Assembly (NCBI GenBank): GCA_964187785.1
Contig: OZ076409.1
Coordinates: 19,532,001 to 19,596,000 of the forward strand
Direction of reading: 5' to 3'
Source of the DNA: Amphiscolops sp. MND2022
Taxonomy: Eukaryota
Length of the DNA stretch: 64,000 bases
Positions 35,201 to 37,657 of the stretch are shown here, one piece after another (position 1 is the first letter of the stretch; every line of letters begins with the position of its first letter). The translations under genes were made by a program, and so were the position numbers. The notes under the pieces were generated by a model that was not told the origin of the DNA, made no database searches, and was given only the letters and a program-made list of their open reading frames with translations.

Positions 35201-37657
35201 ATCGATATGCACGTGCATATACAGGGTATATGCAGTCTATCTTTCACTATACAGTAGCGTACTACATGTCAAAACTGTCCAAGATTTGTTATACACGAGC
35301 ATATTCAGGGTATATACAGTCTATCTCTCACTATACAGTAGCATACTACATGCCAAAACCGTCTAAGATTTGTTATACACATGTATATTCAGGGTATATA
35401 CAGTCTATCTTTCACTATACAGTAGCATACTGCATGCCAAAATAGTCTAAGATTTGTTATACACGAGCATATACGGGATATATGCAGTCTTTCTTTAAAT
35501 ATACAGTACCATACTGTAGGCCGAAAGCGTCTAAGACTGGATAAACAAGCATATATGGGATATATACACTCTATCTTTCTTTATACAGAAGCATAAGGTA
35601 GGCCAAAACCGTCTAAGATTTGATATACACAAGCATACATGAGATATATACAGTCTATGTTTCATTATACTGAAGCATACTACATGCCAAAACTATCTAA
35701 GATTCGATATACACAAGCGTATACAGTGTATATGCAGTCTATTTTTTGCCATACAGTAGCATACTACATGCCAAAATAGTCTAAGATTTGATATACACAA
35801 GCATATATGGGATATATGCAGTCTATGGTTCATTATACACTAGCATACTACATGCCAAAATAGTCTAAGAGTTGATATACACAAGCATACATGAGATATA
35901 TACAGTCTATGTTTCATTATACACTACCATACTACATGCCAAAATAGTCTAAGAGTTGATATACACAAGCGTATACAGTGTATATGCAGTCTATTTTTTG
36001 CCATACAGTAGCATACTACATGCCAAAATAGTCTAAGAGTTGATATACACACGCATATGTCGGATAAAGAAATACACGAACGTTGCGTCCTTAAAAAACC
36101 CCATAAAAAAAACGAGAGAACTCGACCTGTACACTCCCAGACATTTCATCCATTGCCGCCGTAGCCGGATGGTTTCATGAAAGGGTGCGAGATCGGAAAC
36201 ACTAGTTGAGGATCCATGGGGGCTCCAAACCGGTACCCAAATTCCCCCTCCCGTTCCTACGCGAGCCTGGACCTGGTTCCATCAACGTCGTGATTTATTT
36301 TGAACCCAACTTTTACCCTCTTCGTACCGTCTTGAACCGAATGATAAATTCAAATAAAAAGATTGCACAAAAATTCTATTTCAGAAAAGTAAATGTTTTC
36401 ATTCAAACAGAAGTCAAAAACAAACATTCACATAACAAACATTTCAATGTGTACAAGTCTTTAAACAACTTCAAGTTTTTTCAGGGCCTTAAATAGAGCC
36501 AGAACAATATTAGGGGAATCCCTTTCTGTATTTGCCTCAGCTTTACAATTAACAACTCCAGCGACGGACAAAACCCTCTTAAGAATTGGTCTCCCGATGA
36601 GCTGCGCGTGAGGATGCAACGTAACGATAGTACCGCCATGCTCCCCAGTTACTGGAACGATCCAAGACTTGCAGATTCTTCTTAGGTTTAATTTGGCGTT
36701 GCGAGAAGCTCCTTCTTCGGCAGTTTTGCGGTCCTTACCGCACCGTTGTCCTAGCCCCACATAGTTTTTGCCATCTCCTACAGCTACGAAAGCTTTGTAG
36801 CGGTACTGGCCATCGCCTATAGGAACGACTTTCAGTGGCGCCACGACAAGTTGATCACCAAAAAAGTAGTCAGCGATCTCGGGTTCCTTTATGTCAAATC
36901 TGCTGCTACGGACGGCTTCGTAGTCCTTGAAAGCCCCCGCTTTCGTAAGCCTTCCGGCTTGCGTTTTTGGGTGCCACTTCTTGACGACAGGGGAAAATGG
37001 TGTGGTAGAACTGCTAGTTTCCATCGTGGAGAGAAAACAATGAATTGATTATGAAACAGATCAAATCTGAAAAGTGAAAAATTTGAAGTCAAATCGAAAA
37101 CTAGAAGGACTTATTCTACTCAACAATTTGGCAAGTTAATATTTCATTCGGTATTAGTCCATTTGTTTAAATGGGAAAAATTTCAATGACACCGGTCGTT
37201 GAAATTAATGTTTGAAAGTTTACCTGAAGACGAAAATTCTTTTTCCCTCGATAAATAGTCAAAGTTTTCAAAAGGATTTGGGGGGGTATAAAAGGAATAC
37301 GGTGTAATTTGAATCTAGATGAAACATCACTAATTTCCATTTTTTTTTGTTTGAAAAAGTAGCCATCGGAAAAATTCAAAAAGTAGAGGCGAAAAGTTGC
37401 AATAATAATTGCATTTCATTTCTGGGGGAAGGTTCAGAAGAAACTAACCTCTGTGAATATTACCGTACCGTATGCGAAGATACTTTCGTTTTAAAACTCT
37501 GTAAAAGATCGGTAACTTTGTATAGAATTTACAGAATATTGGTCGTAGCCAATACATTGTAAATTGGTAAATTGAAGGGAAACATTCAATAGACGCACCG
37601 CGTGATATTTCGTATTACGTTGAGCCTGTTTGCCACCCACGTTATTTCGCAGGCATG

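Follow-up and report, generated by a model that had tools for sequence, protein, structure and literature searches.

Why would a mobile DNA element of an animal carry a gene that resembles a ribosomal protein, and does the product of such a gene still belong to the ribosome? The question is raised by a 64,000-nucleotide stretch of the genome of Amphiscolops sp. MND2022 (assembly GCA_964187785.1, contig OZ076409.1, positions 19,532,001 to 19,596,000 of the forward strand), hereafter called the window, in whose own coordinates all positions are given. The window contains a Polinton/Maverick element that encodes, on the minus strand beside its right terminal inverted repeat (TIR), a homologue of the small-subunit protein uS5 (RPS2). 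In the following sections, we describe this gene and its many copies, compare it with RPS2 of the same genome and weigh what its protein might do for the element; the reading that we favour, with a probability of about one half, is that it acts off the ribosome as a nucleic-acid-binding factor.

A uS5 homologue as a gene of a Polinton

The uS5-like open reading frame (ORF; 36461–37024, minus strand) reads from ATG to TAA without internal stops and encodes 187 amino acids. Both uS5 domains score above their Pfam cut-offs: Ribosomal_S5 (PF00333; E 5.6e-11, 42.7 bits against a cut-off of 27.1, model positions 20–64 of 65) and Ribosomal_S5_C (PF03719; E 1.7e-6, 27.8 bits against 21.5). Searching Protein Data Bank (PDB) chains with phmmer returned 151 distinct sequences at E ≤ 0.01. 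The top matches are eukaryotic 40S uS5/RPS2 chains (E 1.6e-20, query residues 15–180, 33–36% identity), and the alignment gaps fall at the three loops that the first-pass annotation, made from the sequence alone, had named as shortened, namely loop 1, the linker between the two domains and the GTG loop. The AlphaFold2 model, for which 24 family members were aligned, is confident (mean pLDDT 90.9, pTM 0.84). Its best 50 Foldseek matches are chains of eukaryotic cytosolic ribosomes (E 7e-17 to 3e-14, TM 0.79–0.83, 28–35% identity), and those that are also among the phmmer matches are all named uS5/RPS2. A structural search against representative chains aligned 173 residues to eukaryotic uS5 (3j7a_G; Z 20.5, rmsd 2.1 Å); in all, 18 ribosomal uS5-type chains scored Z ≥ 12, with organellar and bacterial S5 ranking after eukaryotic uS5, and unrelated folds stayed at Z ≤ 6.3. 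The N-domain of the model also aligns to the double-stranded RNA-binding domains (dsRBDs) of R2D2, TRBP2, Dicer and Staufen at Z 5.0–5.8. The window protein is basic (isoelectric point 9.8, net charge +12), a property retained in all 28 Polinton uS5-like proteins examined (isoelectric points 8.9–10.1). The ORF is a two-domain homologue of eukaryotic uS5/RPS2. Sequence reading and TIR mapping bear out its earlier description as an intact, intronless ATG ORF inside the TIRs, and the significant profile and structure matches confirm that it is colinear with the two-domain core of RPS2.

This gene is present in many copies. The 1.07-Gb genome was searched with the window protein and with the Pfam model, each list comprising the best 150 scored of 330–353 candidates. 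The window protein gave 153 matches (150 listed) with identities from 100% down to 29%; among the 150 listed, 101 are stop-free and 49 contain stops. Merging the two lists gave at least 218 distinct S5-like places, and a search with a clade-B allele added 24, which brings the family to at least 242. Copies occupy a fixed position relative to the gene for the protein-primed family B DNA polymerase (pPolB), which was found in the same convergent arrangement in 20 of 20 fetched 10-kb contexts around copies spanning 32–100% identity. From the polymerase side, 68 pPolB matches were scored out of 4,208 first-look candidates. Of these 68, 52 are followed 2.8–6.6 kb downstream (median 4.6 kb) by a convergent S5-like place, and the clade-B search raises this number to 53; the absence of a listed partner from the other 15 may reflect the best-150 lists. 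No poly(A) tract or target-site duplication (TSD) of its own was seen around the ORF in the sequence read. The uS5-like ORF is a gene of the Polinton and not a stray retrocopy.

Substitution patterns point to functional constraint on the protein. Ratios of nonsynonymous to synonymous divergence (dN/dS) were calculated for all pairs with 0.02 < dS < 1.2 among 28 ORFs, pairs that are not independent of one another. Five pairs at dS 0.13–0.29 have ratios of 0.11–0.33; for the window gene and its counterpart at locus L022, dN is 0.029 and dS 0.255 (ratio 0.11), with pPolB of the same two elements giving 0.13–0.18. The window gene and an identical copy on contig C7 (L021) differ at none of 564 coding positions, against 16 of 1,468 flanking positions (Fisher p 0.009). 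Two other pairs show no such contrast between coding sequence (CDS) and flank, and dS between subfamilies is saturated. As judged from these sequence comparisons, the gene is under purifying selection along its lineages. The first-pass annotation had seen here a long-held gene of the element rather than a recent retrocopy, a view that is supported both by the recurrence of the gene at the same place in sister copies and by ratios that, at measurable divergence, are not near 1.

Remodelling of the protein and exchange of its alleles

Comparison with the host protein revealed what distinguishes the Polinton form. Scanning the whole genome with the S5 model located host RPS2 at two loci on contig C5 (L041 and L042; 107.6 bits), with all other places at 52 bits or less. 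The two loci lie at distant places, are near-identical and share their exon–intron structure. Both encode an RGG-rich tail with an FRGGFG motif and have all three loops at full length, and in both an exon ending in ...CSTG is followed by an intron of ~177 nt and an exon that encodes the C-tail. The window ORF is continuous across this intron position, which fits capture from a processed mRNA. Its protein lacks both tails, and its loop 1, linker and GTG loop measure 7, 11 and 9 residues, against 12, 22 and 12 in host RPS2 and in matches that are genuine uS5. In uS5, these three segments make contacts to rRNA or neighbouring proteins. An RG-rich N-terminal extension with FxxxFG is absent from every sampled Polinton protein; six of them (L031, L032, L036, L038, L077 and L078) have serine-rich N-terminal tracts in place of the RGG tail. 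RPS2 and the Polinton proteins share an N-terminal helical segment (W-P-T-GRL...KEPEI-D), which is near-invariant in the remodelled clade. At loop 1, the remodelled forms contain a new, nearly invariant I-G-x-G-x-Y turn, whose conservation suggests a new functional site.

We also examined the 35 columns that are at least 90% conserved among 31 eukaryotic uS5 proteins. The Polinton family keeps 14 of these, has deleted 3, replaced 1 and varies at 17, so that 21 of 35 are not kept; the window protein alone retains 19. The loss of the RGG tail and the C-tail and the shortening of three loops, all claimed at first reading, thus hold against host RPS2, and the accompanying claim that core residues are kept holds for these 19 columns of the window protein and fails for the remainder. 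In summary, the Polinton proteins resemble eukaryotic uS5 in their homology over S5 and S5_C, their fold (Z 20.5) and their eukaryote-type N-terminal helical segment. They differ from it by the missing RGG/FxxxFG extension and C-tail, the shortened loops, the intronless gene and its existence as hundreds of divergent mobile copies.

Phylogenetic analysis placed the less and more remodelled forms in order. In a first tree of 112 rows, based on a quick search, 17 of 18 Polinton proteins grouped with seven database proteins in one clade (SH-aLRT 94), and the remaining one (L040) stood apart on a long branch. Four further Polinton-linked ORFs with a Pfam match over the whole N-domain (L077–L080) are less remodelled: L077 has loop 1 at full length, PHTIP within a long linker and the same PAPRGTG as the host, and L078–L080 have GTG-type loops and no longer possess the N-terminal helical segment. 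A second, careful tree with 69 rows, which samples 22 of the at least 242 copies, unites all 22 Polinton proteins in one clade (UFBoot 99, SH-aLRT 95; recovered in 99% of bootstrap trees) with branch lengths of 0.3–1.7 substitutions per site. Among 20 proteins looked up to identify tree rows, only two received names, P0026 as uS5 of a nematode and P0047 as RPS2 of an insect, and the 'euk' and 'out' labels of the tree were set by tree position and linker length. The eukaryote-type half of the tree (100/99) includes the Polinton clade, which branches outside the group containing host RPS2 (85/92), so that the Polinton proteins stand apart from host RPS2. Loop-keeping forms, which retain PAPRGTG and PHT(I/V)P as in host RPS2, branch first, and the loop-deleted clade is nested among them (98/81). 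Since all sampled copies fall into one clade, a single capture followed by stepwise loss would be the simplest history of these genes. If this history is true, intermediates of an exaptation, loop-keeping and loop-deleted, have survived side by side in one genome, which would be rare. The series from RPS2-like to stripped forms amounts to a natural experiment on the conversion of a ribosomal protein.

The alleles of the gene do not follow the elements that carry them. The pPolB genes of the window element and L027 differ by a dS of only 0.007–0.025, yet dS of their uS5-like genes is saturated and dN is 0.33. L036 and the window element are 98.6% identical in the protease and 95–97% in pPolB, and merely 38% identical in the uS5-like protein. 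In several elements, a block 3' of the gene (36081–36332; 90–92.5% identity) and the TIR (84–95%) are kept, the CDS is ~69% identical or not detectable with blastn, and the 5' region has no blastn match; in other elements, all DNA similarity ends near 35031. The divergent cassette comprises the CDS and its 5' flank, about 36333–37873. Across alleles, which differ by 60–70% in sequence, frames remain open at only 30–65% identity. Near-identical pPolB genes combined with saturated uS5-like dS and conserved flanks indicate that alleles were exchanged between elements, and these alignments show a cassette, made up of the gene and its 5' region, whose anciently diverged alleles are exchanged between similar elements. 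Such divergence inside conserved flanks marks the gene as a likely conflict locus, in an animal DNA element that is very abundant.

A similar pattern is known from the immunity regions of lambdoid phages, in which divergent alleles and adjacent regulatory DNA lie between conserved flanks. In both cases, a divergent gene is exchanged together with its adjacent DNA among near-identical genomes; the likeness drawn here is one of exchange pattern and not of the repressor and operator function of the phage regions. Exchange of modules is also reported to be common in Polinton-like viruses (preprint 10.64898/2026.10.13.758929). Replication and morphogenetic modules are exchanged there, and the available text of that preprint contains no ribosomal cassette. 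The size of the family, the graded loss of loops and the exchange of the cassette had not been foreseen in the first-pass annotation.

Possible function of the remodelled protein

What might such a protein do for the element? The first-pass annotation had proposed a decoy, a translation modulator or an RNA-binding anti-silencing factor. The results above show descent from uS5, a retained fold and basic charge, lost tails and loops, constraint, a fixed position and allelic exchange; the role of the protein is inferred from these. We estimate at about one half the probability that it is an off-ribosome, basic, nucleic-acid-binding factor that interacts with the host or with competitors, and that it arose by a single capture and stepwise loss. 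According to this proposal, a Polinton lineage captured uS5 once, from a processed mRNA. The captured protein would have lost the RGG-rich N-tail and the C-tail, and then, in successive steps, the tip of loop 1, the loop linking the two domains and the GTG loop; the I-G-x-G-x-Y turn would have arisen at loop 1, with the protein staying basic and well folded. In its remodelled form, it would no longer operate inside the ribosome; expressed from a unit of its own near the end of the element, it would act in free form as a basic binder of nucleic acid, most likely RNA, with two domains. It could serve the element by blunting RNA-based silencing or another defence, and selection for diversity in such a role would explain the many old alleles.

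A departure from the ribosome is suggested by the loss of the chaperone-binding N-extension, by the 21 of 35 near-invariant columns that are not kept, by the overlap of the shortened linker with a nuclear localization signal (NLS) of human uS5 and by alleles that seem too divergent for one rRNA pocket. PDCD2/Tsr4 binds the N-extension of uS5 (the first 42 residues in yeast, with the FxxxFG motif), and the NLS of human uS5 is K159–T232 (PMC10216425), a stretch that in our alignment includes the linker shortened in the Polinton protein. The simplest role for a basic protein that is free of the ribosome and has two domains, one of them dsRBD-like, would be nucleic-acid binding, and the end-proximal, inward-facing unit together with the allelic diversity suggests a role in interaction with host or competitors. 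Viruses are known to use dsRBD-type proteins, such as vaccinia E3, to suppress host RNA sensing or silencing. The modelled Polinton protein resembles these suppressors as a small basic protein with an alpha-beta-beta-beta-alpha domain of RNA-binding type. It differs from them in that its domain descends from uS5 and not from a canonical dsRBD, and the likeness lies at commonly seen Z values. By analogy with the phage regions, and more tentatively, the cassette might be a specificity or 'immunity-like' module made from a ribosomal RNA-binding fold, in which ancient interchangeable alleles would be favoured by selection for diversity against host RNA defence or competing elements; we regard this as possible and hold it with low confidence.

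Several observations weigh against the proposed off-ribosome role or its history. The attachment of the Polinton clade outside the host-containing uS5 clade may be a long-branch artefact. Five pairs at dS < 0.05, with 3–6 synonymous changes each, give dN/dS values of 0.5–1.4, which suggests that many genomic copies are decaying; such a combination of low and high ratios is usual where active lineages are constrained and copies decay once inserted. The window element itself has a broken pPolB, so that this copy need not be expressed. The dsRBD similarity at Z 5–6 falls in a range that the search tool calls common, and the dsRBD-like domain of uS5 itself is not known to bind free dsRNA. Loop 1 is the RNA-contacting loop of canonical dsRBDs, and its shortening could therefore argue against RNA binding. 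Finally, the early-branching forms keep the GTG loop and may therefore still bind the ribosome.

uS5 is a core ribosomal protein, and the Polinton protein retains its whole two-domain fold. Together with the near-invariant W-P-T-GRL...KEPEI-D segment of the remodelled clade and the PAPRGTG and PHT(I/V)P motifs kept by early-branching forms exactly as in the host, this would be expected if the protein were still ribosomal, replacing host uS5 in some 40S subunits, altering the mRNA entry channel and favouring mRNAs of the element; phage-encoded bS21 and bL12 do enter ribosomes (PMC6375957). We nevertheless find this unlikely, as the clade of the window protein misses three loops and both tails, including the N-extension bound by the chaperone, 21 of 35 near-invariant columns are deleted, replaced or variable, and an allele divergence of 60–70% is hard to square with one invariant rRNA pocket. 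Moreover, according to a 2019 survey (PMC6375957), the ribosomal proteins found in viruses are for the most part loosely bound and exchangeable, unlike uS5. uS5 also takes part in a conserved network of partners outside the ribosome, two of which, PRMT3 and ZNF277, seem to share a site (PMC10216425), and the retained globular core could carry that site. The Polinton protein could thus be a decoy or dominant-negative for such partners (PRMT3, ZNF277, PDCD2L) or for the pre-40S particle, perturbing ribosome biogenesis or an extra-ribosomal pathway. The PDCD2 variant of this idea is weakened by the absence of the N-extension to which PDCD2/Tsr4 binds, and very fast divergence of alleles misfits conserved partners unless these also evolve fast, which makes a decoy improbable.

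A small basic protein (isoelectric point 9.8, net charge +12) encoded beside the TIR might instead bind the DNA or genome ends of the element itself, as a condensing protein of the virion core or a cofactor of replication or integration. Adenoviruses, which are relatives of Polintons, need basic core proteins. This reading also appears doubtful to us: the gene is separate from the capsid module and runs in the opposite direction, no known DNA-condensing protein is among the top structural matches, and among elements with window-like TIRs the protein drops to 59–65% identity with the TIR at 84–95%. A sequence-specific TIR binder was rejected as the leading idea because TIR identity does not track protein identity, an absence of co-variation that runs contrary to such a function. 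The last alternative is a neutral passenger, that is, a processed RPS2 pseudogene that landed in one Polinton and was copied along with it. The missing intron, the stops in 49 of the 150 listed matches and the high ratios of near-identical copies agree with a passenger. This reading is already contradicted by dN/dS values of 0.11–0.33 at dS 0.13–0.29, by frames that stay open across alleles only 30–65% identical, by the conservation of the remodelled motifs, by the confident structure model, by the fixed position in 20 of 20 contexts and by the lack of a poly(A) tract or own TSD in the sequence read, and we consider it very improbable.

Occurrence elsewhere and the element that carries the gene

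The remodelled uS5 form was not found beyond the group of this genome in searches of proteins, viral contigs and metagenomes. An exhaustive profile search of 1.84 billion representatives gave 3,061 matches at E ≤ 0.001, of which 150 were listed. Within this listing, the short form of loop 1 is confined to top-ranking ENA/Logan proteins, and several of these are near-identical to copies of this genome; from the nematode uS5 (P0026) downwards, most matches that cover loop 1 have a 12-residue loop, and none contains the IG.GQY turn except two short fragments (P0049 and P0064). A word-based protein search with the uS5-like protein returned 12 ENA proteins. In viral contigs, there were 50 pattern matches and no relative among them. 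Of 30 metagenome loci, 29 were translated and all proved to be ordinary uS5, with the linker and GTG loops full in 29 of 29 and loop 1 in 26; in the other three (L055, L061 and L066), loop 1 aligns short with the CAG(Q)RTRF motif kept, and two have in-frame stops there. The locus outside the 29 (L076) is a 39-residue match. The entries retrieved from a protein atlas were all ordinary archaeal-type uS5 clusters, at 0.90–0.91. For the capsid protein of the same element, by comparison, 369 relatives were retrieved at E ≤ 1e-5, some of them proteins of another animal that bear the name 'F54H12.2-like', and Polinton ORFs of other sources are therefore represented in the searched database.

We found no previous report of a uS5-derived gene in the literature on Polintons and adintoviruses. 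The texts available on Polintons/Mavericks, supplements being outside this scope, contain no link to uS5 and no ribosomal protein among accessory genes, and uS5 is without mention in the available texts of PMC11499249 and PMC6375957. Ribosomal protein genes are rare in eukaryotic viruses; a 2024 study describes eL40 of giant viruses as the first example (PMC11499249). Viral ribosomal proteins are mostly small, solvent-exposed and exchangeable; those of phages are mostly loosely bound, and bS21 and bL12 were shown to enter ribosomes (PMC6375957). The Polinton gene resembles phage bS21, bL12 and bL9, giant-virus eL40 and eS30 of FBR-MuSV as a host ribosomal protein gene that was captured and kept under purifying selection (PMC6375957, PMC11499249). 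It differs from these in its derivation from a core protein, in the loss of ribosome-contact loops and in its carrier, a Polinton and not a phage or giant virus. In contrast to the phage cases, a core subunit component appears here to have been remodelled off its ribosomal contacts and to be among the most variable genes of a conserved element.

Adintoviruses carry accessory genes for PLA2, gasdermin, cupiennin, Bcl2 and IAP as well as 'Oncoid' genes (PMC8502044). Like these, the uS5-like gene is of cellular origin and accompanies pPolB, integrase and a capsid core; unlike these, it derives from a ribosomal protein, a class absent from the main text of that study. Adintovirus Oncoids lie upstream of PolB (PMC8502044), and the uS5-like gene lies downstream of it, convergent and beside the TIR. 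If our reading is true, these genes would be the first family in a Polinton to descend from a ribosomal protein. A small, well-folded protein makes the function of a Polinton accessory gene directly testable.

The carrier is a capsid-encoding Polinton/Maverick, very abundant in the genome, of 17,424 bp (20676–38099) with TIRs of ~150 bp. Polintons are characterized by TIR ends of 5'-AG...CT-3' and a 6-bp TSD; the ends of the element read AG...CT, and the flanking hexamers TATGCC and TGTGCC agree at 5 of 6 positions. Its features are the following:

20670–20675: left TSD, TATGCC, read directly
20676–20824: left TIR, starting with AG; repeat-search arm 20711–20824, 91% complementary, with the alignment extending outwards to 20676
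20919–21188, plus strand: ORF of 89 amino acids with an EGF-like domain, a left-end accessory gene (Pfam EGF, E 4.8e-5, 24.0 bits, cut-off 21.5)
23261–24025, plus strand: candidate A32/FtsK-type packaging ATPase, weak (Pfam Pox_A32, E 3.3e-4, 20.7 bits, below the cut-off of 22.8)
24945–25754, plus strand: rve-type integrase, stop-to-stop frame (Pfam rve, PF00665, E 2.3e-12, 47.5 bits, cut-off 32.6)
26951–28279, plus strand: double jelly-roll major capsid protein, 442 amino acids (AlphaFold2 pLDDT 72.9; structural matches)
28276–28704, plus strand: candidate adenain-like protease, weak (Pfam Peptidase_C5, E 0.0058, 16.8 bits, below the cut-off of 21.3)
30269–34668, plus strand: pPolB (Pfam DNA_pol_B_2, PF03175, E 5.5e-12)
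35134–36058: tandem array of an 84-bp unit, 11 copies, between pPolB and the uS5-like gene (Tandem Repeats Finder score 1036)
36081–36332, minus strand: conserved 3' block of the uS5-like gene (90–92.5% DNA identity in L024, L026, L028 and L029)
36461–37024, minus strand: uS5/RPS2-derived ORF, 187 amino acids (Pfam, PDB, AlphaFold2 and structural matches)
37025–37948, minus strand: 5' flank of the uS5-like gene (no blastn similarity in elements with conserved 3' block and TIR)
37949–38099: right TIR, ending with CT (repeat search and alignment)
38100–38105: right TSD, TGTGCC

The capsid protein was recognized by its modelled structure, which matches the major capsid protein of the virus PBCV-1 at Z 24.1 (rmsd 3.2, 342 aligned) and those of Sputnik and mavirus at 19.8 and 19.3, with the best non-capsid fold at Z 6.9, and also matches capsid entries in BFVD. 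The top BFVD match is an uncharacterised Cotesia bracovirus protein (E 1.9e-20, 25% identity). PDB sequence searches with the capsid protein and the ATPase returned nothing useful. The candidate ATPase and protease, both below their Pfam thresholds, sit in the expected gene order. In the window element, pPolB is broken over three frames (30269–31549, 31440–33398 and 33547–34668), and in sister copies it is a single frame of about 1,470–1,483 amino acids; its N-terminus contains a C2H2 zinc finger (PF00096, E 4e-6).

The uS5-like gene adjoins the right TIR, faces inward and is convergent with pPolB. It has an AATAAA signal at 36299–36294 (minus strand), 162 nt past the stop, and a (CA)n run detected by Tandem Repeats Finder at 37658–37718 lies in its 5' flank. 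At the opposite end of the element, the ORF with the EGF-like domain points inward from the left TIR as its mirror image. The 84-bp array varies in copy number and is missing from some sister elements; similarity breakpoints between elements adjoin it, and ORFs called within it (e.g. 35146–35445) are repeat artefacts. A tRNA-like inner part of the TIR was considered and not borne out, as ARAGORN reported no gene and Rfam no tRNA at E ≤ 1 (only a chance-level Plastid-ycf2 match, E 0.35).

Elsewhere in the genome, head-to-tail arrays of uS5-like ORFs or fragments occur on contigs C3 (~58.05 Mb), C1 (~4.41 Mb), C6 (~51.32 Mb) and C7 (~42.17 Mb). Neighbours are spaced roughly 0.9–2.7 kb apart, at larger and irregular distances in the group on C7, and many members on C3, C1 and C6 contain stops; the arrays resemble locally amplified right-arm segments that lie outside the usual layout of the element. 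Within the window, a second inverted-repeat pair lies outside the Polinton (14508–14600 and 18203–18295; 93 nt, 87% complementary, 3.6 kb apart) and may mark another mobile element.

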